Origin: an uncultured Bacilli bacterium
GTDB taxonomy: Bacteria > Bacillota_I > Bacilli_A > RF39 > UBA660
Direction of reading: 5' to 3'
Assembly (NCBI GenBank): GCA_934090935.1
Contig: CAKOKD010000001.1
Location: forward strand, 290,571-354,570
Length of the DNA stretch: 64,000 nt
This document shows positions 1 to 59,020 of this stretch, in pieces; position 1 is the stretch's first letter, and each line of letters opens with the position of its first letter. The translations under genes were made by a program, and so were the position numbers. The notes under the pieces were generated by a model. The model was not told the origin of the DNA, searched no databases, and saw nothing but the letters and a program-made list of their open reading frames with translations.

Positions 1-561
1 TAAAATTTTATCAACTATACCATAATTCATTGCTTCTTCTGCATCCATGTAATGATCTCTTTTTGTGTCGTTATTTATCTTTTTTAAAGTTTGGTTGGTG
101 TTTTTTGCAAGAAGTTTATTTAGTTTTTCTCTTAAATGTAAAATTCTATCAGCTTGAATTTGAATTTCCGTTGCTTGACCTTGAGCTCCACCTAGTATTT
201 CATGAATCATAACTTCAGCATTTTCCAGGATACATCGTTTTCCTTTAGTTCCGCTTGAAAGCAAAAAGGCACCCATTGAAGCACTCATACCAACTCCGAT
301 AGTTTCAACATCACTTTTTATAATTTTCATTGTGTCATATATGGCAAGACCAGCAGTAACTGATCCTCCAGGAGAATTGATATAGATTGATATATCATTA
401 TGATTAATTGAATCTAAATATAAAAGCTCGGATATAACTAAAGAAGCTGTATCATCATTAATCTCTCCACTTATAAATATGATTCTATCCTTTAATAATC
501 TTGAATAAATATCGTAAATTTGATGCCCTTCATAATTTTTTTCTACTATTGTTGGAATTAT
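1..561 (-). CDS. clpP: ATP-dependent Clp protease proteolytic subunit; the last few C-terminal residues lie beyond the window edge
   Basis: Reverse-strand translation gives ...[14 protein letters not shown]...[18 protein letters not shown]...[11 protein letters not shown]...[20 protein letters not shown], typical ClpP. AGGTGA then a TTG start inferred at 559-561; start uncertain. Confidence 0.8.
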
Positions 562-687
562 CAATATTATCACCTAATAATATTATAAATAAAACATTAG
601 AAAATATTCTTAAATAAAATGACAAATGGACACGAATTTTATAATAAAGAGTAAAATTCATGATATAATTTAGAATAGGTGGTATAC

Positions 688-2127
688 ATGAGTAATAAAG
701 AATATGCTGCGGGGTTAAAATTTTTATTATATGTTGCTGTTAAAGATTTATTTAACGGAGAAGTGTTTTTTCATCATTCTTTAGATAAAGGAATATATAC
801 AACTATTGAATGTAATGAAACAATAGATAAGGAAAAACTTCTTAATATAAAAAGTTATATGAAGGAACTTGTTGATAAAAATATTCCGATAGGTAAAAGA
901 ATAGTAAAAAAAGAAGATGCTTATAAATATTATAAAGAAAAAAATGCCTTAGAAAAGATGACTAATGTTTTAAATATAAGCAATATAACAGTTTCTTTAT
1001 TTGAATTAAATGGCAAATATAATTATTTTTATACGCATAATATGGTTAAATCAACTGGAGAATTAAAATTGTTTGATTTATATTTTATTGAAGATAATAA
1101 GTTTATATTGGTTTTACCAACTAATGATGAGATTATATTTAATTTTAGAAACAAGATATATGAATCCTTTAGAGAATATGATTCATGGTTAAAAAGAGTA
1201 AATATAAATTATGTAATGGATTTAAATAAGCTTATTGCAGAAGGTAAAATTAAAGATTTTATACGTAAAAATGATATTATGATTGAAAGAAATCTTGAGG
1301 GAATAGCTGAAGATATAGTCTCTAAAAATAAAAGAATTGTTTTACTTGCCGGACCTTCCAGCAGTGGAAAAACTACAACTAGTAAGAAGTTGAGTTTATA
1401 TCTTTCTTCTTTAGGGGTAAATGCAATTCCAATATCTCTTGATGATTTCTTCTTAAATAGAAATGAAACTCCAGTTGATGAATATGGTAATAAAGATTAT
1501 GAATCAATAAATGCTTTAGATTTGAAATTATTTAATAAAGTGTTAACTGATTTGTTGAGTGGAAATAAAACTTATTTACCAAGTTATAATTTTATTACTG
1601 GAGAAAAAGAAATCAGTACAACTTCAATAGTTTTAAATGAAAATGACTTATTAGTAATTGAAGGTTTACATGGACTTAATCCTAATTTAATAAGCAACGA
1701 ATATCAAGATTTAATATATAAAATCTATATTAGTCCTTTAACACCTTTAAATGTTGATAGACATAACTATGTTTCAACAACTGAAAATAGACTTCTTAGA
1801 AGAATAATAAGAGATTTTAGAACTAGAGGAAAAAGTGGAGAAGATTCACTTGCATCATGGGAAAGCGTTAGACGTGGAGAAGAGGCTTACATATTCCCAT
1901 ATACTGACAGTGCTGATGCTATAATTAATACAGCTTATACTTATGAAATTGGTGTTTTAAAAGTGTATGTTGAACCAATACTTTATAGTATTGATATAAA
2001 TAGTAAATATTATAATGAAGCTAGAAGAATAATAGATCACTTAAAAACTTTTTATCCAATTCCTAGTGAATATGTAAGTGAGGATAATTTGTTAAGAGAA
2101 TTTATTGGTGGATCTAGTTTTGAATAG
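688..2127 (+). CDS. uridine-kinase-family P-loop kinase with an N-terminal extension (about 250 aa)
   Basis: Walker A LLAGPSSSGKTTTSKKL and a uridine-kinase-like core (ISLDDFF...LVIEGLHGLNP) preceded by a ~250-aa N-terminal extension. RBS-like AATAGGTGG (about 675-683) precedes ATG 688; the track start at 679 is GTG. Confidence 0.6.
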   Translation: MSNKEYAAGLKFLLYVAVKDLFNGEVFFHHSLDKGIYTTIECNETIDKEKLLNIKSYMKELVDKNIPIGKRIVKKEDAYKYYKEKNALEKMTNVLNISNITVSLFELNGKYNYFYTHNMVKSTGELKLFDLYFIEDNKFILVLPTNDEIIFNFRNKIYESFREYDSWLKRVNINYVMDLNKLIAEGKIKDFIRKNDIMIERNLEGIAEDIVSKNKRIVLLAGPSSSGKTTTSKKLSLYLSSLGVNAIPISLDDFFLNRNETPVDEYGNKDYESINALDLKLFNKVLTDLLSGNKTYLPSYNFITGEKEISTTSIVLNENDLLVIEGLHGLNPNLISNEYQDLIYKIYISPLTPLNVDRHNYVSTTENRLLRRIIRDFRTRGKSGEDSLASWESVRRGEEAYIFPYTDSADAIINTAYTYEIGVLKVYVEPILYSIDINSKYYNEARRIIDHLKTFYPIPSEYVSEDNLLREFIGGSSFE

Positions 2128-2138
2128 GAGAGGAAAAT

Positions 2139-3140
2139 ATGAAAAAGATTGCAATTAATGGTTTTGGAAGAATTGGTAGACTTGCTTTTAGAGAACTTTT
2201 AAAGTCTCAAGAGTATGAAGTAGTAGCTGTTAATGATTTAACAAGTGTAGAAGATTTATATTATTTATTGAAATATGATTCAAATTTTAGAATGTTTGAT
2301 GCAAGTAGCTTATCTTTTGATGATGAATCATTGATAGTAGCTGGCAAACATGTACGCGTTTTTAAAGAAACGGATGCAACAAATTTACCTTGGGGTGAAC
2401 TTGGAATTGATGCCGTATTGGAGTGTTCTGGACATTACACTGACTTAGAAAAAGCAAATTCACATATCATAGCTGGAGCTAAACATGTTATCATTTCGGC
2501 ACCTGGTAAAGGAGATATGAAAACAATCGTCTTTGGAGTTAATTCAAGAGGCCTTGATGGAAGTGAAAAAGTGATATCAGCCGCAAGTTGTACAACAAAT
2601 TGTCTTGCTCCAGTATTAAGTTTATTGGATAAAGCTTATGGAGTAGAATATGGATATATGACAACTATTCATGCAACAACAAATGATCAAACAACTTTAG
2701 ATGTTGCTCATAAAAAAGGAGCTTTTTCAAGACGTGGAAGAAGCGCTTTAGAAAATATTATTCCAGCATCTACTGGTGCTGCTAGTGCAATAGGTAAAAT
2801 TTTACCAAATTTAAATGGAAAACTTAAAGGAAGCGCTTTTAGAGTTCCAACAATTGATGGTTCAGTAGTTGATTTAACAGTTAAACTAGGAAAATTTGTA
2901 ACTAAAGAAGAAATAAACGAAATGTTTAAAAATAATCAAAGCGATGTTATCAAATTTACAATGGATCCAATTGTTTCAAGTGATGTAATTGGAACACATA
3001 CGGGTTCACTTGTTGATGGACTTTTAACTGATGTTCTTGAATGTGATGGAGAAGAACTTGTAAAAATAGTTGCTTGGTATGATAATGAACTTGGTTATAC
3101 TTGTCAAATGATTAGAACTTTAGGAGAACTTTTAAAATGA
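2139..3140 (+). CDS. gap: glyceraldehyde-3-phosphate dehydrogenase
   Basis: INGFGRIGR NAD-binding motif and the active-site SCTTNCLAP; 333 aa; RBS AGGAGAGG. Confidence 0.95.
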   Translation: MKKIAINGFGRIGRLAFRELLKSQEYEVVAVNDLTSVEDLYYLLKYDSNFRMFDASSLSFDDESLIVAGKHVRVFKETDATNLPWGELGIDAVLECSGHYTDLEKANSHIIAGAKHVIISAPGKGDMKTIVFGVNSRGLDGSEKVISAASCTTNCLAPVLSLLDKAYGVEYGYMTTIHATTNDQTTLDVAHKKGAFSRRGRSALENIIPASTGAASAIGKILPNLNGKLKGSAFRVPTIDGSVVDLTVKLGKFVTKEEINEMFKNNQSDVIKFTMDPIVSSDVIGTHTGSLVDGLLTDVLECDGEELVKIVAWYDNELGYTCQMIRTLGELLK

Positions 3141-3955: not shown

Positions 3956-4172
3956 TGTAAAGCAATTGATGAAGACGTTAAATAATGATTTTTTATAGAG
4001 AAGCTGTGGGTGGTGCAAACAGTTAAAAATAGTTATTTAAGAATCACTTCTAATGCGACTTAGGGATAAGCTAAGTACGTTTACTGCGTTAAAGTTAATA
4101 AAGTGTGAATTACATTCATAAAATAGGATGGTACCACGGACTTGTTCGTTCCTATGTTATGGATGTTTTTTT
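3956..4172 (+). promoter_or_regulatory. T-box riboswitch leader of ileS
   Basis: Conserved T-box sequence AAATAGGATGGTACCACGG at 4122-4139 followed by a U-run (4165-4172) before the ileS RBS. ileS is a classical T-box-regulated gene in Firmicutes. Stem I, specifier and terminator pairing were not resolved by eye. Confidence 0.6.
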
Positions 4173-4190
4173 ATTGGAAAGGAAATGGTT

Positions 4191-7303: not shown

Positions 7304-7345
7304 ATGCTTTCTAGGTTCTAATTTTGTCGACATTTGTCGGATTTA

Positions 7346-7373
7346 TTGACAATGAAAATTAACTATATATAAT
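7346..7373 (+). promoter_or_regulatory. consensus sigma-A promoter inside R1 (TTGACA-16-TATAAT), immediately preceded by the TGTCGACA palindrome
   Basis: TTGACA 7346-7351, TATAAT 7368-7373. TTGTCGACATTTGTCGG at 7324-7340 is a candidate operator. Confidence 0.6.
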
Positions 7374-7469
7374 ACAAACTCGAGAAGCAGAAAAAGATGC
7401 TTATCACTTCCAAACTAGAGGCTAAATTATTCGGGGTTTTGGTTAAGGAGTACGAGAGGAAGTGATACG

Positions 7470-7547
7470 ATGAAGAAGGATAATCAAATAAGATTACTTT
7501 ATCTAATCGTTTTTATATTGTTAATAGTAATTCTAAAATTATTATAG
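7470..7547 (+). CDS. small hydrophobic peptide (25 aa, MKKDNQIRLLYLIVFILLIVILKLL), candidate type I toxin
   Basis: ATG preceded by GAGGAAGTGATACG. The SD region GGAAGTGATA is complementary to upstream TATCACTTCC, predicting SD sequestration. ORF conserved in all three R copies. Confidence 0.5.
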   Translation: MKKDNQIRLLYLIVFILLIVILKLL

Positions 7548-7551
7548 CAAC

Positions 7552-7640
7552 AAAAAAAAGCATCTTTATTCTACTGAATAAGGATGCTACACCCATAAGT
7601 GGTAAGCATCAGCCTCAAAAGAAACTTCTGCTTCTCACTA
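7552..7640 (-). ncRNA. putative antisense sRNA (antitoxin candidate) convergent to the small ORF
   Basis: On the minus strand a TATATT -10 sits about 7 nt upstream of GTGAGAAGCAG, with a -35-like TTACAT 17 nt further up. The transcript would end at hairpin GCATCCTTATTCAGTAGAATAAAGATGC plus U8. The + strand has an A-run before this hairpin and no U-run after it, so it terminates minus-strand transcription only. Confidence 0.4.
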
Positions 7641-7750
7641 AATTAAATATAGCATAATCAAAATAAAATGTAAATATTTACACATAATAGTATTGTTATA
7701 CCGAATAAAAAATTAATCTATGGTACAATTAAAATAGAATGGTGTGTATT

Positions 7751-9061
7751 ATGAAGAGAAAGAGTGCATTAGTATTTACAATTTTATTATTAGCGGTGGG
7801 ATTTGCTGCCGTGTCAACAACTTTAGTAATAAATGGGTCTGCAAAAGTAAGTGAAAATACAGAGGATTTTTCTGTAATATTTACCAAGGCTTCATTAGAT
7901 GGAACAGATGTATATGCAAATATAGTTGATGATACTAAAAAGATAATAAATTTTTCAACAAATGAATTAAAGACAATAAATCAAACAAGTGTGTTAAATT
8001 ATGAAGTAACAAATAATTCAAGCAATTATGATGCTGAAGTTCAAGTAACTTGTAAATTAAAAGATGGTGGGTCTGCTAAATATACAAGTATCAAAAATGA
8101 ACTAGAAGGAAATGCAACAATTGTAAAAGCCAAAGAAAGCTTAAATGGAACATTAACAGTTAACTTAAAAAAAACTGCTACAGAAGAAGTAAATGAACAA
8201 TATGTTTGTGAACTAACGTTTAATGCAGTAGAGAGAACTCAGTTGGGAAATAATCCAGCTATTGATAAGCTAATATCTTTAGCTAATTCTGAGGAAATAA
8301 ATTCATATGAAAATGGAAATAAAAATCAATTATATGTTTTTAATCATGAGCAAACTAAACAAACAGAAGCCCTAAGCGACTATCGTTTTATTGGCGATAA
8401 TCCATATAATTATATAAAGTTTAGTGGTGAAACATGGAGAATATTAGGTATCTTTGATATTGATGGAGAAAAAAAGATTAAAATAATAAAAAATGATACT
8501 TTGGATAGTTCATACGCTTGGGATACTAACGGAAAAAATAATTTTATAATTTCAAGTTTAAATAATTATTTAAATGAAAATTATTATGAAACTTTGGATA
8601 AAAATTATATATCAAAAACAAAAATCTACTTAGGTGGAACTGATATGATGCAATATGTAAAGGCAAATGAATGGTATAGTCATGAAAGAAGTAATAAAGT
8701 GTATTCTGGAAACCCAAGTTATTATAATGACGCATATGTTTCTTTAATGTATCCATCGGATTTTGCTTATACTTATGCCTATGGAATTGACAATGAGTGT
8801 TTTAATAATGGATTTGGATGTGATGTTTCATCAGGAAGAACTAATAGTTGGATGTATATTGGTAAAAATATGGAAGCATTTATAACTCCTGATTCAAGTT
8901 CAAGTAATCAAATTTATAGAATGAATTCTTCCAGTGGTTATAATAAAAGTACATCTTCAACTTTAATGTATATAAGACCAGTTGTATATTTAAATAGCAA
9001 TGTGAAATTTATTTCAGGAGATGGATCAAGCACAAATCCTTATAAATTAGATACAAATTAG
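7751..9061 (+). CDS. secreted family member A: conserved N-terminal module plus lectin-like C-terminal domain
   Basis: Probable start MKRKSALVFTILLLAVGFAAV (the track's 7739 start adds MVCI). N-module is highly similar to the 14603 and 56406 genes (FSVIFTKASLDG.DVY..VDDTKKII.F......QTSVLNYEVTNNSSNYDAEV.VTC...YVCELTFNAVER). C-terminus ...WMYIG...YIRPVVYL...GSSTNPYKLDTN. Own promoter with extended -10 TGGTACAAT; no poly-G. Confidence 0.8.
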   Translation: MKRKSALVFTILLLAVGFAAVSTTLVINGSAKVSENTEDFSVIFTKASLDGTDVYANIVDDTKKIINFSTNELKTINQTSVLNYEVTNNSSNYDAEVQVTCKLKDGGSAKYTSIKNELEGNATIVKAKESLNGTLTVNLKKTATEEVNEQYVCELTFNAVERTQLGNNPAIDKLISLANSEEINSYENGNKNQLYVFNHEQTKQTEALSDYRFIGDNPYNYIKFSGETWRILGIFDIDGEKKIKIIKNDTLDSSYAWDTNGKNNFIISSLNNYLNENYYETLDKNYISKTKIYLGGTDMMQYVKANEWYSHERSNKVYSGNPSYYNDAYVSLMYPSDFAYTYAYGIDNECFNNGFGCDVSSGRTNSWMYIGKNMEAFITPDSSSSNQIYRMNSSSGYNKSTSSTLMYIRPVVYLNSNVKFISGDGSSTNPYKLDTN

Positions 9062-9206: not shown

Positions 9207-9240
9207 TTGACAATCGGGGGGGGTATTATAAAATAAAAAT
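9207..9240 (+). promoter_or_regulatory. family promoter with a G8 homopolymer in the spacer (TTGACA-atc-G8-TATTATAAAATA)
   Basis: G-run at 9216-9223 between a -35-like TTGACA (9207-9212) and an A/T-rich -10 region. Same architecture at 14547, 34011 and 56354. Confidence 0.6.
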
Positions 9241-9257
9241 AGATGAGGTGTGTTTAA

Positions 9258-10019
9258 ATGAAGAAAAGTGCAATAATAGTTGTAATTGTTTTTATGATGA
9301 TTGGATTTGCAGCAGTAAGTACGTCATTAATAATAAATAGTAATATAAAAGTATCAAAGAATGAAACGGACTTTGATGTATATTTTTCAAAGGCAAGATT
9401 GGATACAAAAGATGTATATGAAAGTGTAATAAGTCAAGATAAAAAGACAATAATATTTAATACAAATAATTTAAGTAAAGTAGGAGATAAACAGTACTAA
9501 CATATGAAGTAACAAATAATTCAAACAACAAGGAACTTCATTAAAACAAAATGGTACATATACAAGAATGTATGATACTGAGATTGGATATTTAGCAAGT
9601 ACATCAAGAAATATAAGTGGAATATATGATATGTCCGGTGGAGCACATGAATATATGTCAGTATATACCTTAGATAACTCTGATAATAGTGGAATAACTT
9701 TTACAAATTATGGCTCAAAGTATTATGATGTTTATAATGAATCGAGTATGACAACCAGTTACCAATGTAGAATATTAGGAGATGCAACGGAGAAATGGGG
9801 CCATTTACAACTTTGAAATCAATTGAAAGCAATAGCAGTATAAAAAGATATGTATCAAGTCGGTTTGCATCCTATGCATATTTTGTTTCCTCTTCAAGTC
9901 CATTTTTTGCACGCGGTGGTGATTATGGGCATGGTATATTTGCTGGGCAACTTTATTTTGGTGGTGCTTCTGGAGAAGCATATAGCTATGTTGGTTTTCG
10001 TCTAGTTTTAACACCTTAA
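9258..10019 (+). pseudogene. chimeric, frameshifted family pseudogene D (N-module of the 56406 type fused to the C-terminal region of the 57608 type)
   Basis: 9258-9500 encodes MKKSAIIVVIVFMMIGFAAVSTSLIIN... then stops. TYEVTNNSNN follows out of frame. 9568-10019 in two frames matches the C-terminus of the 57608 protein (TENISGVYDMSGG.HEY...YQ.RILGDAT...GFRLVLTP). Confidence 0.8.
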
Positions 10020-14546: not shown

Positions 14547-14582
14547 TTGAAAATCGGGGGGGGGTATTATAAAATAAAAAAG
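14547..14582 (+). promoter_or_regulatory. family promoter with a G9 homopolymer (TTGAAA-atc-G9-TATTATAAAATA)
   Basis: G-run at 14556-14564. Confidence 0.6.
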
Positions 14583-14602: not shown

Positions 14603-16114
14603 ATGAAAAAGAAGAGTATGCTTATAGTAGCAATTATATTAATGTCAATTGGATTTGCTAGCATTTCAACGACATTAATAATAAACGGGAATGCAAACGT
14701 AAGTGAAAATCAAGATGACTTTTCAGTTATCTTTACAGCTGCAACATTAGATGGAAAGGATGTATATTCATCAGTAGTAGATGATACAAAGAAGATAATA
14801 ACATTTGAAACATCAGAATTAAAAACATTAAATCAAACATCAGTATTAAATTATGAAGTAACAAATAATTCAAGCAACTATGATGCAAATGTAAATGTAA
14901 CATGTGTACCAAAGGAAGGAACAATAGCAAAATATACAAGCATCAAAAATAAATTAGAAAACGAAGCAACAGTTGTAAAAGCAAAAAGTTCAGTAAATGG
15001 AACATTAACAGTAACACTAGATAAGGTAGCAACTGAAGCAGTTACAGAAGAATATACATGTAAGTTAGAATTTAATGCAGTCGAAAGAACTGAAATTGCA
15101 GTAGGAACAACTAATTTATATAATTTAATAAAAAATAATGCTGATACTAAAACCGTAATAGATTATAAGGTACGTTCAGGAGTAAGTGGAACAAATGGAA
15201 TATATACAACAACTGCTACTGAAGGTAATGTACCAGTATATTATTATAGAGGAGCAGCTGATAAAGTAAATAATAATATAATATTTAATAATATGTGTTG
15301 GAAGATAATAAGAACAACTGAAAACAATGGAGTAAAACTAATATATAACGGAACACCAACAGATGGCAAATGTGAAACTCAAACAGGAGAAGCAACTCAA
15401 ATAGGAACAAGTGCATTTAATACAAATTATACCGATAATGCATATGTTGGCTATATGTATGGAACAGCAGGAAGCAACACCTATGCAGCAACTCATGCAA
15501 ATACAAATGACTCAACAATAAAAACATATATAGATAATTGGTATAAAGCTAATTTTGATGAAATAACAACATCAAAATTGGAAGATACAGTATTCTGTAA
15601 TGATAGAAGTACAAAAGCATATGATGCAAAGACAATTGGAGAAACTTCCTTTTCATCCTTTGGTTCATTAGGATATGGGAAAAGTGCATCATTGTATGGA
15701 GCAGCACATCGAGCATCATATTGGTCGAACAATCCAAATCCAAGTTTAGTGTGTCAAAATCAAAATGATAAATTTACCGTAGATAGTAAAAATGGAAACG
15801 GAAAACTAACATATCCAGTTGGATTAATAACATTAGATGAGGTAGTGCTTGCAGGATTTAATACAAAATATTCCAATACAGGTGATTATGATGATGTAAC
15901 AAATTACTTATATACAAATAGCATTTATTGGACATTCTCCCCTGTGATGCTGGATGCTCGTGGTTATGCTTGTGTTGGTTATGTCTATAGTGCTGGCTAT
16001 GTGCACTATGACTATGTGGGCGGTGCTCGTGGGGTCCGTCCAGTAGTTTCGCTTATCAGTGGCACACTTGTAACTGGTTCTGGTACAACAACTAACCCAT
16101 ATGTGGTTGAATAA
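14603..16114 (+). CDS. secreted family member B: conserved N-module plus longer lectin-like C-terminal domain
   Basis: MKKKSMLIVAIILMSIGFASISTTLIINGNANVSEN...VTCVPK...YTCKLEFNAVER. C-terminus ...WKIIRTTENNGVKLIYNG...LITLDEVVLAG...YWTFSPV...GVRPVVSLISG...GTTTNPYVVE. Confidence 0.85.
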   Translation: MKKKSMLIVAIILMSIGFASISTTLIINGNANVSENQDDFSVIFTAATLDGKDVYSSVVDDTKKIITFETSELKTLNQTSVLNYEVTNNSSNYDANVNVTCVPKEGTIAKYTSIKNKLENEATVVKAKSSVNGTLTVTLDKVATEAVTEEYTCKLEFNAVERTEIAVGTTNLYNLIKNNADTKTVIDYKVRSGVSGTNGIYTTTATEGNVPVYYYRGAADKVNNNIIFNNMCWKIIRTTENNGVKLIYNGTPTDGKCETQTGEATQIGTSAFNTNYTDNAYVGYMYGTAGSNTYAATHANTNDSTIKTYIDNWYKANFDEITTSKLEDTVFCNDRSTKAYDAKTIGETSFSSFGSLGYGKSASLYGAAHRASYWSNNPNPSLVCQNQNDKFTVDSKNGNGKLTYPVGLITLDEVVLAGFNTKYSNTGDYDDVTNYLYTNSIYWTFSPVMLDARGYACVGYVYSAGYVHYDYVGGARGVRPVVSLISGTLVTGSGTTTNPYVVE

Positions 16115-24478: not shown

Positions 24479-24698
24479 ATTTATAACAATATAAATTAAA
24501 ATGACTATAATTAAGAGTGTATAACTCTTTTTTTTGTATTTTAGGTTCTAATTTTGTCGACATTTGTCGAGTTTGTTGACAAGAAAAATTAACTATATAT
24601 AATAACCAATTGAGAAGCAGAGAAAGATGCTTATCACTTCCAACTAGAGGCTAAATATTCAGGGTTTTGGTTAAAGGAGTACTAGAGGAAGTGATACG

Positions 24699-24776
24699 AT
24701 GAAAAAAGATAATCATATAAGATTACTTTACTTAATCGTTTTAATATTGCTAGTAATAATTTTAAAATTATTATAG
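24699..24776 (+). CDS. small hydrophobic peptide (25 aa, MKKDNHIRLLYLIVLILLVIILKLL), candidate type I toxin, copy 2
   Basis: Same RBS-sequestering arrangement as R1. Confidence 0.5.
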   Translation: MKKDNHIRLLYLIVLILLVIILKLL

Positions 24777-24863
24777 GAAAAAAAGCATCTTTATTCTACT
24801 GAATAAGGATGCTACAACAAACACGTGGTAAGCATCGGCCTCAAAAGGAACTTTTGCTTCTCA
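24777..24863 (-). ncRNA. putative antisense sRNA, copy 2
   Basis: Minus-strand TTGAAA-17-TATATT upstream of GTGAGAAGCAAAAG; ends at the conserved hairpin plus U-run. Confidence 0.4.
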
Positions 24864-24917
24864 CTAAATAAAATATAACATTTTTTAAAAGTGTTTTCAA
24901 TATATAAGGTAATAATT

Positions 24918-24982
24918 ATGCTTATAGTAGCAATATTACTAATGAAGATGGAACAAGTACAAATCCATATGTAGTTTTATAA
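24918..24982 (+). pseudogene. ghost of a family gene: start fragment MLIVAILLM fused to the C-terminal remnant DGTSTNPYVVL*
   Basis: ATGCTTATAGTAGCAATATTACTAATG matches codons about 6-14 of the 14603-type gene. GATGGAACAAGTACAAATCCATATGTAGTTTTATAA in another frame matches the family C-terminal tail (GTTTNPYVVE). Confidence 0.7.
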
Positions 24983-33497: not shown

Positions 33498-33670
33498 GTG
33501 TTTTATTTTTTTAGGTTCTAATTTTGTCGACATTTGTCGGATTTATTGACAAGGTAAATAAAGTATATATAATACAAACTCGAGAAGCAGAAAAAGATGC
33601 TTATCACTTCCAAACTAGAGGCTAAATTATTCGGGGTTTTGGTTAAAGGAGTACGAGAGGAAGTGATACG

Positions 33671-33754
33671 ATGAAAAAAGATAATCATATAAGATTACTT
33701 TATCTAATCGTTTTTATATTGTTAATAATAATTTTAAAATTATTATGTCAATAA
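33671..33754 (+). CDS. small hydrophobic peptide (27 aa, MKKDNHIRLLYLIVFILLIIILKLLCQ), candidate type I toxin, copy 3
   Basis: Conserved ORF, RBS paired with the upstream TATCACTTCC. Confidence 0.5.
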   Translation: MKKDNHIRLLYLIVFILLIIILKLLCQ

Positions 33755-33838
33755 AAAAAGCATCTTTATTCTACTGAATAAGGATGCACCGCAAAATGTG
33801 GTAAGCATCAGCCTCAAAAGAAAACTTCTGCTTCTCAC
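33753..33838 (-). ncRNA. putative antisense sRNA, copy 3
   Basis: Minus-strand TTGTAA-17-TATATT then GTGAGAAGCAG; ends at the hairpin plus U7. Confidence 0.4.
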
Positions 33839-33895
33839 TAAAATAAATATAACATTTTTCAATATAAATTACAATGATAATAAATAAATACACTT

Positions 33896-34010: not shown

Positions 34011-34045
34011 TTGAAAATCGGGGGGGGTATTATAAAATAAAAAAG
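34011..34045 (+). promoter_or_regulatory. family promoter with a G8 homopolymer (TTGAAA-atc-G8-TATTATAAAATA)
   Basis: G-run at 34020-34027. Confidence 0.6.
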
Positions 34046-34065
34046 TAAGATGCGAAGGTGTAGAA

Positions 34066-36180
34066 ATGAAGAAAACGACAATAATGCTAGTTACTGTTTT
34101 ATTTATGATAATAGGATATGCAGCATATAATGCAACTGTAAATATATATGGATTAGGTAAGATATCAGAAAATATAAGTGACTTTAAGGTATATTTAGAT
34201 AATTTAAAAGTAAATGATACAGAAAATACAGGAATAAATGATGTAAAAGATGAATTTACAATAGATAATGTAAATGGAAAAATAAGTGTAGATATAGTAA
34301 ATGATTCAACAGAATATGATACAGAAAGTTATCTTGAGTGTGCAAGTATAGTAACACCAGATAAAACTGAATGGAGATTTGATTATACAGGTGCTGAACA
34401 AACATTTACAGCACCAATGTCTGGAACATATAAGCTTGAGACATGGGGAGCTCAAGGTGGAAGTGTTGGAAACTATACTGGTGGCTATGGGTCATATTCA
34501 ATAGGTGATTTATATTTAACACAAAATAGTAAAATTTATATTAATATTGGTGGAGCTGGTACAACTGGAAAATTGGATGCATCATTTGTTGTAACTCCTG
34601 GTGGCTATAATGGAGGTGGAATAAATACTTCAGATGTCTATGGTTATGGAGCTACGGGCGGAGGAGCGACTCATATATCTACAACATCAGGTCTACTTTC
34701 AGAAAATGCGAATAATTTATCAAACTTATTAATCGTATCTGGAGGCGGCGGAGGAAGTGGGCAAGAAAGTGGATTAGGATATTGCTATGGAGGTTCCGCT
34801 GGAGGAATATCAAGCACCAAAGGTTATTCTAATCCAAATCGATATTATGCTCCAGGCGATGTTGGTACTCAAACAACAGGTTTTGCATTTGGTAAAGGCG
34901 GAGATTCAAAATCTTGGCTTGGATCCGGTGGAGCAGGTTTATATGGAGGCTATTCTGGATGTGGAGGCGCGGGAGGCTCGAGTTATATCGGAAACTCACT
35001 CTTAACAGAAAAATCAATGTACTGTTATAATTGTACTGAATCAACTGAAGAATCAACACGAACTATAAGTACTACATGCACAAGTGCAACACCAACCGAA
35101 AACTGTGCAAAACAAGGTAATGGATATGCACGTATTACTCTAGTTTCAAGTGACGAAATAGAAAAAATATCAACAGAAGTGGTAACTATAGAAGCCCAAG
35201 ATAAGAAAAAAGTAACCTTAGAAAATATAAATACAGGCAGTTTAACTTGTAAGTTAAAAGTTAATAAATTATCACGAACAACTAAAGAGGAAAAATATAT
35301 AGGTCCAACAGAATGGACATTTGATTATACAGGAAGCGAGCAAACTTTTACAGTACCAATAAGTGGAACATACAAGCTTGAAACATGGGGAGCACAAGGT
35401 GGAAATGCTATTTATACAAATTATAGTGGTACTGGTGGTAAAGGATCATATGCAGGTGGAGTAATTGAATTTAATGCAAACACAAAAATATATGTTTATG
35501 TTGGTGGAAAAGGTACGAATGGCAATAATTCAAGAGCCGCTACTTTAATTGAGGGTGGTTACAATGGAGGAGGTAACAATCAATCTTTAGATTCTGCATC
35601 ACCTGCTGGAGGCGGAGCAACCGATATTAGATTAACAAATGGATTATGGAATAACTTTGATTCTCTTAAATCTAGAATAATGGTTGCTGGAGCTGGAGGC
35701 GGATCTGGAATAGAGAATGTAGGTGCTCCAGGAGGATTGAATGCTGGAGTCTATGGAACTCTATATGGAGGAAACGGAACTTCAACTTCAGGTGGAGCAG
35801 CTGGTACTGGATATAGCCACAATAGTGGAGCAACAAACGGAACATTTGGAGTTGGTGGAAACGGTGGACGATATATCACAGGAGCTGGAGGTAGTGGTTA
35901 CTATGGCGGAGGCGGAGGAAATCATTATTCGCCAGCTACCTCCGGAGGTGGAGGCGGCGGTTCTTCTTTCATCTCAGGACATGACGGATGTGATGCAATA
36001 TCCGAAAACTCTACAGCATCAAATATAATACATACAGGTCAATCTATACATTATAGTGGATATTATTTTACTCAAACTATAATGAAGTCTGGAGACGAAA
36101 CAATGCCAAGTCATGATGGGAAAAGCACTATGACAGGAAATAGTGGTAATGGATACGCACGTATTACGTTAATAAAATAA
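34066..36180 (+). CDS. secreted glycine-rich repeat protein (family-type leader plus short N-module plus two tandem Gly-rich modules)
   Basis: MKKTTIMLVTVLFMIIGYAAY leader. Two repeats each start EW.FDYTG.EQTFT.P.SGTYKLETWGAQGG and end GNGYARITL. Runs of GGGGG, GGATDIRL and VAGAGGGSG. Confidence 0.8.
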   Translation: MKKTTIMLVTVLFMIIGYAAYNATVNIYGLGKISENISDFKVYLDNLKVNDTENTGINDVKDEFTIDNVNGKISVDIVNDSTEYDTESYLECASIVTPDKTEWRFDYTGAEQTFTAPMSGTYKLETWGAQGGSVGNYTGGYGSYSIGDLYLTQNSKIYINIGGAGTTGKLDASFVVTPGGYNGGGINTSDVYGYGATGGGATHISTTSGLLSENANNLSNLLIVSGGGGGSGQESGLGYCYGGSAGGISSTKGYSNPNRYYAPGDVGTQTTGFAFGKGGDSKSWLGSGGAGLYGGYSGCGGAGGSSYIGNSLLTEKSMYCYNCTESTEESTRTISTTCTSATPTENCAKQGNGYARITLVSSDEIEKISTEVVTIEAQDKKKVTLENINTGSLTCKLKVNKLSRTTKEEKYIGPTEWTFDYTGSEQTFTVPISGTYKLETWGAQGGNAIYTNYSGTGGKGSYAGGVIEFNANTKIYVYVGGKGTNGNNSRAATLIEGGYNGGGNNQSLDSASPAGGGATDIRLTNGLWNNFDSLKSRIMVAGAGGGSGIENVGAPGGLNAGVYGTLYGGNGTSTSGGAAGTGYSHNSGATNGTFGVGGNGGRYITGAGGSGYYGGGGGNHYSPATSGGGGGGSSFISGHDGCDAISENSTASNIIHTGQSIHYSGYYFTQTIMKSGDETMPSHDGKSTMTGNSGNGYARITLIK

Positions 36181-52729: not shown

Positions 52730-52872
52730 ATTGATGTTGATGAAGAGTTACGCCTTTGGAGTCAAATCGTATTATTCGCGTTAAGAATTATAGAGAGTAT
52801 GAGCAATCATAAATTAAGGTGGTACCACGGAGTTATTCGTCCTTAAGTAGTGATTGCTTTTTTGGTGGTGTT
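52730..52872 (+). promoter_or_regulatory. T-box riboswitch leader (tyrS operon)
   Basis: T-box sequence AAATTAAGGTGGTACCACGG at 52811-52830 followed by a U-run at about 52856-52861. Confidence 0.6.
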
Positions 52873-56388: not shown

Positions 56389-56405
56389 GATGAGGTGTGT
56401 TTAAG

Positions 56406-57599
56406 ATGAAGAAAAGGAGTGCAATAATAGTTGCAATTGTTTTTATGATGATTGGATTTGCAGCAGTAAGTACGTCATTGATAATAAATGGAAATGCTAA
56501 TGTTAGCGAAAGCAATGAAGATTATTCAGTAATATTTACTAAAGCTTCATTAGATGGAGAAGATGTGTATTCAACAGCAGTAGATGATACAAAAAAGATA
56601 ATTACATTTACAAGTAAGAATCTAATGAAAGTCGGAGACACATCAACACTTACATATGAAGTAACAAATAATTCAGCAAACTATGATGCAGAAGTGCGTG
56701 TTACATGTGTACCAAAAGACGGAACAACAACAAAATATACAAGTATCAAGAATGAACTTGAAGGAAATGCAACGAAGGTATTAGCAAAAGAAAGTATAAA
56801 TGGAACATTAACAATAACACTTTCAAAACAATCAATCGAAGAAGTGAGTGAAGAATATACATGTTCGTTAGAATTCAATGCAACTGAGAGAGATGAACTT
56901 GGAGAAAATATTCAAGATCCAGTATCATTTACAACAGATTCCTGGGAGACTATTCAAAAAGCAGTTAAAATAGGAAATACAAGTAAATATAATGTAGGGG
57001 ATACAAAAGAAATAAATTTAACTAATTTTGGAACACATACAGTGCGTATATCAAATATGAGTGCATGCACAAATGGAGAAACAAGTGAAACAGCATGTGG
57101 GTTTGTAGTAGAATTTGCAGATATAATAACAAAACATACATTTAATAATACATCAACAAATGTAGGAGGTTGGAAAAATTCAGAAATACGTACATATGTA
57201 AATGGAACAATATATAATTCTTTACCAAGTGAATTACAAAATGCTATCACTTCAACAAAGGTAATATCAGGACATGGAAGTACAAGTGGAGAGACAAATT
57301 TTGAAACACAAGACAAAGTATACCTAATATCATCAAAAGAATTATACGGAACAGCGACAGTCAAAGATACTTTAAGCACTGAAACAAAGCAATTGGATTA
57401 TTATAAAAATAAAGGAGTTACTTTATTAAAATACACTGAAGCTGTAAAAAAGTATAATCTACAAGACGTAAACTGGTGGCTTCGATCAGCAACTTCCGAT
57501 ACAACAGACTTCTTTCTTGACGTAGCAACAAAGGGAGTCTGGACAAACGGAGCTTCTACTGCATTAAATGGCATTTCTCCAGCATTTAGAATAGGATAG
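56406..57599 (+). CDS. secreted family member C: conserved N-module plus lectin-like C-domain ending ...WWLRSATSD...GISPAFRIG
   Basis: TGAGGTG RBS 8 nt before ATG 56406 (the track's 56397 start is GTG). N-module is close to the 9258 pseudogene N-terminus. Confidence 0.85.
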   Translation: MKKRSAIIVAIVFMMIGFAAVSTSLIINGNANVSESNEDYSVIFTKASLDGEDVYSTAVDDTKKIITFTSKNLMKVGDTSTLTYEVTNNSANYDAEVRVTCVPKDGTTTKYTSIKNELEGNATKVLAKESINGTLTITLSKQSIEEVSEEYTCSLEFNATERDELGENIQDPVSFTTDSWETIQKAVKIGNTSKYNVGDTKEINLTNFGTHTVRISNMSACTNGETSETACGFVVEFADIITKHTFNNTSTNVGGWKNSEIRTYVNGTIYNSLPSELQNAITSTKVISGHGSTSGETNFETQDKVYLISSKELYGTATVKDTLSTETKQLDYYKNKGVTLLKYTEAVKKYNLQDVNWWLRSATSDTTDFFLDVATKGVWTNGASTALNGISPAFRIG

Positions 57600-57607
57600 T
57601 GATTAGT

Positions 57608-59020
57608 ATGAAGAGAAATAAAATAATAACATTAATTCTTGTAATATTTGTATTCGGAATATCAGTAGCATATGCAGCAGATATAATATTAAGTGAAGAA
57701 GTATATTTTGATAATAAAAATTCAAATTTGAGTTCAACAAATGTACAAGATGCAATAGATGAAATAAATGAAAAAGTATTGTTAACAAAATCATGTTCAA
57801 GTGATGTAGAAGAACCAAAAGTAAGTGATGGATTAATACCAGTAACTATAGCAAATGATGGAACAGTAACATATGCCGATACAAGTAAGAGATGGTATGA
57901 CTATTGTAATAAAGTTTGGGCAAATGCAGTAATACTTGAAGATGGTGTAAGTTATAATGTAGGAGATACAATAAAAGAAGATGATATTCAAAGTTATTTT
58001 GTATGGATACCAAAATACAAGTACAAACTTTGGAATGTAGATACACCAATAGAAAAAACACACGAAATAGATATAATATTTGATGCAAAGGATACAATAG
58101 ATGTAGAAGGAGTATCATGTAAAACACCGATGACAAGTGGAGATTCAGGAAACTGTAAAAATGGAGAATATATGACACATCCAGCATTTGTAAGTATGGG
58201 AGTGAATGGATTCTGGGTAGGAAAGTTTGAAACTGGATATAAAGGAGCGACAAACGTTTCTTCTGGTCGAGTAAATTCAAGGGATACAAGTAAAGTAATA
58301 ATAAAACCAAATGTATATAGTTGGAGAGGCATAACTGTATATAATGCATTTAGTGCAAGTTATAATTATAACCGAGAAATGAATTCACACATGATAAAAA
58401 ATACCGAGTGGGGAGCAGTTGCATATTTAAGTCACTCAAAATATGGAATAAGTAAAAAAATAAACATTAATAATAACAGTTCCTTTAAAACAGGATATTC
58501 AGCTCTTTTATCAACAAGTCAACATATATATCCTGGAGATTATGGGGATGGCGCAAGTTATAATTCTTTCTATAATACAAATGTAGGTTATAAAGCAAGT
58601 ACAACGGAAAATATAAGTGGTGTATATGATATGTCTGGTGGAACTCATGAGTACACTGCTTCATATGTAAATGGAAAACCAGGTACAAGTGGATTTACAA
58701 CTGCAACAATTGCAAACAGTGATTCAAAATATTTTGATATATATAATGCATCTTCTTCAGTTACATCTTATCAATATAGAATATTAGGAGATGCAACTGG
58801 TGAATTAGGACCATTTAAACGATATGTAGATGCAGATAATACCTCTAGAGGTCATAATGGTTGGTATGGCGAACATTCTGATTTCATTGATTCTTCTTAT
58901 CCTTGGTTCATTCGTGGAGGTTATTATTGCTATGGAGTGCTTGCAAGTCAATTTTATTTTAATAGGTATACTGGAGCTGTTGATTTAAACATTGGTTTCC
59001 GTATAGTTTTAGCTCCATAA
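57608..59020 (+). CDS. secreted protein E, co-transcribed with C: Sec signal peptide (VAYA/AD), unique N-region, lectin-like C-region ending GFRIVLAP
   Basis: Starts 9 nt after the stop of C. Its C-terminal 150 aa are the template of the 9568-10019 pseudogene segment. Motifs HPAF...GFWVGKFE, EWGAVAYL, PWFIRGGYYCYG. Confidence 0.8.
   Translation: MKRNKIITLILVIFVFGISVAYAADIILSEEVYFDNKNSNLSSTNVQDAIDEINEKVLLTKSCSSDVEEPKVSDGLIPVTIANDGTVTYADTSKRWYDYCNKVWANAVILEDGVSYNVGDTIKEDDIQSYFVWIPKYKYKLWNVDTPIEKTHEIDIIFDAKDTIDVEGVSCKTPMTSGDSGNCKNGEYMTHPAFVSMGVNGFWVGKFETGYKGATNVSSGRVNSRDTSKVIIKPNVYSWRGITVYNAFSASYNYNREMNSHMIKNTEWGAVAYLSHSKYGISKKININNNSSFKTGYSALLSTSQHIYPGDYGDGASYNSFYNTNVGYKASTTENISGVYDMSGGTHEYTASYVNGKPGTSGFTTATIANSDSKYFDIYNASSSVTSYQYRILGDATGELGPFKRYVDADNTSRGHNGWYGEHSDFIDSSYPWFIRGGYYCYGVLASQFYFNRYTGAVDLNIGFRIVLAP

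Follow-up and report, generated by a model that had tools for sequence, protein, structure and literature searches.

What does a long, glycine-rich and seemingly repetitive protein do in a gut bacterium, and which part of its gene is free to vary? The question is raised by a 704-residue open reading frame (ORF) within a 64,000-nucleotide (nt) stretch of contig CAKOKD010000001.1, the whole of which we refer to as the window. An initial annotation had read the gene as a tandem-repeat protein whose repeat number might change. We find instead that the two repeats are copies of the ALK/LTK-type glycine-rich domain (GRD) in a nested arrangement, and that the variable element of the gene is a guanine tract in its promoter, not the protein repeat. 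On balance we favour an adhesin or variable surface antigen that is exported through Sec and switched at its promoter, in an uncultured gut Bacilli bacterium of low guanine-plus-cytosine (GC) content, a reading in which we place reasonable though far from complete confidence. Feature coordinates are collected in Table 1.

The reading frame is real. Its product matches the Pfam family PF12810 (ALK_LTK_GRD) at 273.3 bits (E = 3.2e-81), where the gathering threshold is 24.5 bits and coverage of most of the model was a further criterion. Each repeat is separately significant and nearly spans the model: GRD1 scores 116.4 bits (E = 2.7e-33, model positions 7-242 of 243) and GRD2 170.9 bits (E = 6.1e-50, positions 7-243 of 243). 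No other family was found in a Pfam search of the protein. The annotation had proposed a likeness to a bacterial and protist glycine-rich domain family, correctly, as it turns out. Glycine makes up 19% of the protein, which accounts for the raised GC content of the gene (37.6% versus a window mean of ~27%). The two repeats, of ~300 residues each, start with TEW.FDYTG..EQTFT.P.SGTYKLETWGAQGG at residues 102 and 416 and end with GNGYARITL at residues 351-359 and 694-702, the protein terminating in GNGYARITLIK. In global alignment they are 51% identical over 244 positions (z = 22 versus shuffles), and their first 140 residues match in BLASTP at E = 8e-29.

These repeats, with the same start and end motifs, had been described at the outset, and all of the glycine-rich strings quoted for them are found in the protein. 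Other details required correction. Two near-identical 33-nt stretches do exist, one in each repeat and offset by 942 nt in frame, but the first reads TATAAGCTT... rather than TAC..., and they lie at 34429-34461 and 35371-35403, so that the letters and positions given for them were off. The cysteine-containing segment, described as a linker after repeat 1, sits within repeat 1, ahead of GNGYARITLV. A boundary between the repeats had been set at 35160-35330; there is indeed an inter-repeat segment, with the limits given in Table 1.

An AlphaFold2 model of the protein, built on 67 homologues, has a mean predicted local distance difference test (pLDDT) score of 77. GRD1 is mostly above 90; GRD2 is at ~80 but falls below 50 at residues 639-690, a C-terminal part divergent from most homologues. 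In a Foldseek search of the PDB, the top 21 matches are all ALK/LTK TG/GRD structures (7NX1, 7MZY, 7LRZ and 7LIR among them) with E = 6.5e-8 to 1.9e-5 and probability 1.00, and subsequent matches have E > 0.1. Direct sequence comparison to C. elegans SCD-2 (7LIR) yields a weak match. DSSP analysis of the model assigns strands to the sandwich and coil to the glycine-rich segments, as polyglycine-II helices would give. On the Foldseek matches, the predicted fold is the TNF-like sandwich plus glycine-rich supradomain of ALK/LTK type, in which the glycine-rich segments presumably form polyglycine-II helices as they do in ALK/LTK. The beta-roll or beta-helix that had first been pictured finds no support: the protein has no GGxGxD motif, no Pfam match to such a family and no PDB match to such a fold. 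Within the domains, conserved glycine motifs alternate with segments less than 50% conserved (for example residues 133-138, 166-178, 186-197, 231-241 and 251-263). The four cysteines C320, C323, C338 and C347 are each at least 90% conserved in the homologue alignment (A1), and in the family consensus the four-Cys segment is a conserved part of both repeats in most homologues.

How the two domains are arranged became apparent from the remainder of the protein. The N-terminal leader, whose columns are 83% conserved in alignment A1, is predicted to serve as a Sec signal or as an anchor at the N-terminus. Over residues 1-92 the protein is homologous to the N-terminal regions encoded by the other poly-G genes of the window (BLASTP E = 2e-9 against the 14603 paralogue), and profile-profile comparison to the paralogue modules with hhalign gives a probability of 97.9% and E = 4.6e-13. 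The modelled paralogue module is a 7-stranded immunoglobulin (Ig)-like sandwich with pLDDT ~90 over residues 40-165; its top 50 Foldseek matches are generic Ig-like sandwiches only (best E = 1.1e-3), none of them a specific relative in the PDB. In the 704-residue protein, the first half of this module is modelled with pLDDT ~80-88. The second half lies between the GRDs. A profile of the C-terminal half of the module (45 sequences) aligns to residues 358-415 with hhalign E = 1.5e-5 to 2.5e-5, whereas 19 control slices from elsewhere in the protein all give E >= 0.013. In this alignment LTCKLKVNKLSRT pairs with YTCKLEFNAVERT, and the invariant C92 and C395 correspond to the Cys pair of the paralogue family. 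The strand counts of both predicted models fit a 4 + 3 split of the module. BLASTP does not match the inter-repeat segment to the paralogue module; the relationship is resolved only by the more diverse profile. Because the 50-residue segment between the GRDs is the second half of the Ig-like module, GRD1 is placed, by profile and model, in a loop of an Ig-like stalk, and GRD2 in the payload position of the family. The two GRDs form a nested architecture and no simple tandem repeat. The GYA/AYN motif of the leader (the slash marks a possible cleavage site) is also reminiscent of the TasA motif TWA/AFND; a TasA/camelysin-type module with a SipW-type signal was rejected, with no Pfam, NCBIfam or PDB-profile match and no TasA in the Foldseek top 50, and the TasA relation of the N-terminus was not borne out.

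The nested architecture bears on the proposal that the gene encodes a tandem array with copy number changing by recombination between near-identical internal DNA stretches. The two repeats do share a 101-nt stretch of 84% identity at the in-frame 942-nt offset, and proteins with 1 to 10 domains occur across paralogues and lineages. However, the longest exact DNA match between the repeats is 15 nt, and the two-domain, 704-residue length holds throughout the complete alleles found: in the 90%-identity cluster, six complete protein sequences, ~25 contigs in all, are every one 704 residues long, and the sole short member (387 residues, starting at M318) is short because its 1.2-kb contig ends there. 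More than 4,000 homologues were found; among the 120 matches listed, all measure 661-778 residues and all carry PF12810. Recombination from one repeat to the other would also cost the protein the inter-repeat segment; as this is the C-terminal part of the Ig-like fold, the module would be destroyed. Copy-number change is largely refuted and, in our estimation, highly improbable; the differences in domain number are evolutionary, not allelic, variation. What had been read as a tandem repeat is a pair of nested domains, and the variation sits in the promoter tract.

Leader, poly-G promoter and upstream cassette all tie the gene to the poly-G surface-protein family of the window, as the initial annotation had held, and by these sequence features we assign it to that family. 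The window paralogues have promoter, leader and Ig-like module homologous to those of the 704-residue gene. The paralogues have an uninterrupted module that precedes DUF6273 or unknown domains, whereas here it is split by GRD1, with GRD2 as payload. Among the loci fetched, poly-G stands upstream of 52 of 70 distinct leader genes, a count biased by how some loci were fetched.

Further traces of the family occur in the window. A broken family gene at 9216-10019 is probably a pseudogene, and its frameshifted fragments resemble the C-terminal part of the protein encoded at 57599-59020. The latter, a 473-residue gene with a different signal-like leader, has a GTG start at 57599 that overlaps the stop codon of the 56397 gene, and may be co-transcribed from the poly-G promoter of that gene. 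At 24899-24970, after cassette copy 2 and just upstream of trpS, lies a family-gene remnant in which an N-terminal piece (MLIVAILLM) is joined to a C-terminal piece (..GTSTNPYVVL, then stop).

The promoter of the 704-residue gene has the layout TTGAAA-ATC-G8-TATTA-TAAAAT (10/12 matches in a promoter scan). Tracts of at least seven guanines occur four times in the 64 kb, all in paralogous promoters, where 0.31 matches would be expected by chance; the coding region has 137 glycine codons yet no G run of 5 or longer. This promoter unit is conserved before the paralogues and in other species, and the 86 instances comprise 73 with G8, 7 with G6, 4 with G7 and 2 with G9. The tract of the gene itself is G8 in seven of eight complete assemblies and G9 in the other; a G9 and a G8 locus (L172 and L173) have identical flanks and the identical protein allele, P0123. 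The 14603 paralogue has a G9 promoter (14547-14582) with a 17-nt spacer, and its orthologues in other metagenomes, in Illumina-style assemblies, have G6, G7 and G9 besides G8, making the 14603-type promoter the most length-variable of the family among those seen.

Two further promoter forms bear on how the tract might act. Locus L017, from Firmicutes bacterium CAG:582, holds two GRD paralogues with a homopolymer-free promoter, TTGAAA-ACCTAGATAGGGTATCC-TAAAAT, whose 17-nt spacer suggests that G9 gives optimal spacing and that G8 is one step off. In other gut lineages, homologous leader genes have poly-A in place of poly-G at the same promoter position, followed by an extended -10 element (TGGTA..); these lineages appear to use the same switch design built from a different homopolymer. 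Judged from such comparisons, the G8 tract probably lets cells vary expression of the gene at random. A literature search turned up no pertinent report of phase variation by poly-G in these gut Bacilli.

In the mechanism that we propose, transcription would proceed from a sigma-A-type promoter with G8 inside its 16-nt spacer, and slipped-strand mispairing would shift the spacer by 1 nt per step, with G9 giving the canonical 17 nt. Expression would thereby be switched or graded at random, independently for each paralogue. The leader would route the protein through Sec, after which either the uncleaved hydrophobic segment, the only one in the protein, would serve as anchor or cleavage would occur after GYA. 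Two GRD heads on an Ig-like stalk would then bind ligand, as adhesins or variable antigens; like the receptor-binding tips of phages, the heads alternate hypervariable loops with conserved glycine motifs. Domain identity, the nested architecture, family membership, the place of the tract in the promoter and the G8/G9 polymorphism at this locus are established; that expression is switched on and off, that the protein is retained at the surface and that it binds a ligand we infer from the features described above.

Several points weigh against this proposal. All tract-length data come from consensus assemblies. G8 is near-uniform, at 85% of promoter instances and in all but one assembly of the gene, as would fit a fixed element. 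It occurs in both 16-nt and 18-nt spacers (the latter in L005 and L015), so that conservation may act on the length of the tract and not on that of the spacer. Of the 11 shorter tracts (G6/G7), six derive from a single assembly set, VOFC01, with frameshifted-looking downstream genes, and may be sequencing errors. Breaks in contigs at the poly-G (in L004 and in several metagenome contigs) were set aside as evidence of heterogeneity: the promoter occurs as a dispersed repeat, at which assemblies break, and this explains the breaks near the tract. For the heads, the TM-scores of the ALK/LTK fold matches are modest (0.33-0.49, target-normalised), and our literature search found no ligand, anchoring domain or experiment for any bacterial PF12810 protein; the sole paper found to cite the family describes it with "no hint of a function" (PMC4859500).

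The promoter observations among these are those to be expected were the poly-G a fixed promoter or regulator-binding element, the gene being expressed constitutively or under ordinary regulation without phase variation. Such an element would explain the prevalence of G8, its retention even with an 18-nt spacer, and the origin of many deviating lengths in one error-prone assembly set. It accounts poorly for G8 and G9 with the same flanks and protein allele, for the G6, G7 and G9 of the 14603-type orthologues, and for the poly-A of related lineages, whose varied lengths (12, 16 and 17) at the same spot imply "a homopolymer here" and not a specific G-box; moreover, one paralogue works without a homopolymer. 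We regard a fixed element as unlikely, though it deserves to be kept in mind.

If expression is switched, what is being displayed? Related GRD proteins are all exported, judging by their leaders, which are of prepilin, SipW-like or lipoprotein type. Prepilin-type N-termini (for example MKRAFTLIELLAVI..) are present on GRD proteins in related metagenome-assembled genomes (MAGs; L061 1942, L064 1534, L079 2248 and L016 2410) and suggest, from sequence, that GRDs may be displayed on type IV pilus-like fibres; in L079 a G10 tract lies upstream of the prepilin-type GRD gene. By analogy with other carriers of the fold, the heads probably bind a host or microbial ligand, or act as variable antigens.

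A structural or protective surface coat, or a released exoprotein, with variation serving immune or phage evasion and no specific adhesion, would also fit part of the evidence. The literature search yielded no ligand, the protein has no LPXTG motif for cell-wall anchoring, and a possible signal-peptidase site (GYA/A) would release it. Genomes hold many paralogues (eight or more paralogous loci are possible in one MAG), giant PF12810 proteins have up to 10 domain copies, and the variable mycoplasma Vsa/Vlp surface proteins have a shielding role (PMC10502178). But the same fold binds ligand or receptor in ALK/LTK and in the phage Pam3 fibre, the hypervariable loops with conserved glycine motifs resemble receptor-binding tips, and the pilin-type leader fusions suggest display away from the cell. 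A coat or exoprotein is, to our mind, a minority prospect beside the adhesin or variable antigen that we favour.

The phage relationship could also indicate that the gene is the remnant of a prophage tail-fibre or receptor-binding gene. Matches to PHROG families are strong (E ~1e-64 to 1e-66), and 77 viral structures match at E <= 1e-3, including proteins annotated as virion structural protein, putative short tail fibre or tail-collar-domain protein; viral contigs also hold relatives, one of which is encoded four ORFs after a tail-fibre-like gene. The flanks of the gene, however, are housekeeping genes (M16 peptidase, Band_7, HIT and RNase J) that are syntenic across strains, with no phage genes nearby, and no tRNA gene or integration signature was found near the gene, which itself has the Sec leader and promoter of its family. 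A prophage origin of this kind is very hard to credit. We give scarcely more credence to a bolder combination, in which abundant, uncultured human-gut Bacilli would have a mycoplasma-style promoter-switched repertoire whose ALK/LTK-type heads capture a specific host ligand and have been exchanged with phage tail fibres. Were it true, a commensal would be mimicking a receptor, and the captured ligand might be an ALKAL-like cytokine or another host factor.

The host is an uncultured low-GC (~27%) human-gut Bacilli bacterium. A 100% identical protein occurs on 15 human-gut metagenome contigs (Hadza and other cohorts), flanked by the same housekeeping genes, and a genome-contig search for relatives returned 80 loci. 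Species-level genomes of the relatives are uncultured gut Bacilli, including Firmicutes bacterium CAG:582 and Clostridium sp. CAG:1193, with further deposited names such as Coprobacillus sp. CAG:605, "uncultured Tenericutes" and similar. When repeat 2 was searched exhaustively, 7,538 cluster representatives matched at E <= 1e-3, of which 869 reached E <= 1e-30.

Directly upstream of the gene, and not part of the protein, lies the third of three window copies of a ~370-nt cassette (7308-7680, 24538-24906 and 33508-33880; 91% mean column identity). All three precede family genes or the remnant of one, and in other species the same element stands 41-185 nt upstream of poly-G promoters. Copy 3 has a perfect TTGACA-16-TATAAT promoter at 33546-33573 and a hydrophobic ORF of 27 codons at 33672-33755, conserved as 25-27 codons in the copies (MKKDNHIRLLYLIVFILLIIILKLL..). 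The predicted fold of the plus-strand RNA (-80.6 kcal/mol, z = -7.7) is closed by a helix between its 5' and 3' ends and sequesters the Shine-Dalgarno sequence; a hairpin would terminate minus-strand RNA. Neither RNA nor peptide has an Rfam or Pfam match; by its layout, the cassette looks like an undescribed type I toxin-antitoxin-like module. At L003 the Band_7 and M16 peptidase genes are replaced, directly upstream of the cassette, by another paralogue with two domains (251-2404, 718 residues, no poly-G); seen in a single strain or assembly, this arrangement is either a structural variant or the product of contigs being joined at the repeat. Elsewhere in the window, a T-box leader (3957-4156; Rfam, 100 bits) precedes a 1054-residue tRNA-synthetase-like ORF, and 65 nt at 52804-52868, 75% identical to its 3' end, may be a second, sub-threshold T-box.

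Table 1. Positions of the features discussed, in window coordinates unless a locus handle is given.
Feature	Position	Residues	Strand	Basis or description
ORF, ATG start	34066-36180 (stop codon included)	704	+	Sequence reading, Pfam match
Sigma-A-type promoter	34011-34038		+	-35 TTGAAA 34011-34016; 16-nt spacer; -10 TAAAAT 34033-34038
G8 tract in promoter spacer	34020-34027		+	Sequence
Shine-Dalgarno GAAGGTG	34054-34060		+	Read from sequence; 5 nt ahead of ATG
Family leader	34066-34170	1-35	+	MKK, 15-residue hydrophobic core, then conserved GYA/AYNATVNIYG
Ig-like beta-sandwich module, first half (strands 1-4)	34171-34359	36-98	+	Ends at invariant C92
GRD1, ALK/LTK-type glycine-rich (TNF-like + Gly-rich) domain	34360-35151	99-362	+	PF12810
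Four-Cys segment CYNC...C...C, inside GRD1	35023-35106	320-347	+	Conservation in homologues
Ig-like module, second half (strands 5-7); inter-repeat segment	35152-35301	363-412	+	Holds invariant C395
GRD2, second ALK/LTK-type glycine-rich domain	35302-36177	413-704	+	PF12810
Cassette copy 3	33508-33880		+	Directly upstream of gene
Window poly-G paralogues	14603-16114; 56397-57599; 7739-9061			Homologous promoter, leader, Ig-like module
Broken paralogue (probable pseudogene 9258-10019)	9216-10019 (including G8 promoter)			80-residue N-terminal ORF, then frameshifted fragments
"Locked" promoters, L017	~2945-2975; ~4157-4187			Homopolymer-free
Poly-A tract, L036	~2930-2950			A17
Poly-A tract, L038	~2955-2970			A16
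Poly-A tract, L076	~2935-2950			A12

Taken together, the locus gives PF12810 a clear context. This is a large family (7,538 cluster representatives) that spans gut bacteria and phages and whose non-metazoan members are without assigned function; here it appears as the exported payload of a putatively promoter-switched multigene family, in a bacterium recurrent in human-gut metagenome assemblies. The glycine motifs alternating with hypervariable loops suggest, by analogy, that the domains bind a ligand or act as antigens on the cell surface.

Among known systems, the closest in fold is the TG supradomain of ALK/LTK (PF12810; 7NX1, 7LRZ, 7MZY and 7LIR): both repeats match the Pfam model end to end, and the 21 best PDB matches of the fold are all of this kind. 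The bacterial protein differs in having two copies, one of them nested in an Ig-like module, and in an identity of 15-19% to the solved structures. Unlike the receptor tyrosine kinases, it is without EGF-like, transmembrane-kinase or other ALK domains, and nothing in it points to ALKAL binding. Phage receptor-binding proteins offer a second comparison. The cyanophage Pam3 fibre gp24 recognises its receptor through a TNF-like plus glycine-rich domain and has been likened to C. elegans ALK (7LIR) (PMC9608196). With Pam3 gp24 (7YFW) and Salmonella phage S16 gp38, the protein has in common the TNF-like sandwich, glycine-rich motifs, variable distal loops and extracellular binding (PMC9608196), the last of these predicted here, and many phage proteins share its fold and sequence family. 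In contrast, it is not a virion protein: it has a Sec leader, its gene lies among chromosomal housekeeping genes behind a putative phase-variable promoter, and its Foldseek match to the Pam3 fibre 7YFW is weak (E = 0.25).

In genetic design, the nearest counterparts are phase-variable surface-protein genes. Poly-G and poly-C promoter tracts are found at porA and opc of Neisseria meningitidis. In mycoplasmas, the vlp genes of Mycoplasma hyorhinis have a poly-A tract in the promoter region, and Vmm of M. mycoides has a dinucleotide repeat in the promoter spacer (PMC10502178). The gut family resembles these systems in placing a homopolymer between -35 and -10, with G6 to G9 across the family, and in being a multigene surface-protein family with shared 5' region and leader, with four poly-G promoters in the window. 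It departs from Vlp and Vmm in that the tract is poly-G, or poly-A in some related lineages; the leader of the 704-residue protein is no lipoprotein signal; the payloads are large globular domains, not short tandem repeats; and switching is predicted from sequence. Set beside these systems, the gene is a well-supported, fairly ordinary member of a very large uncharacterised domain family, in a surface-protein system of known kind.

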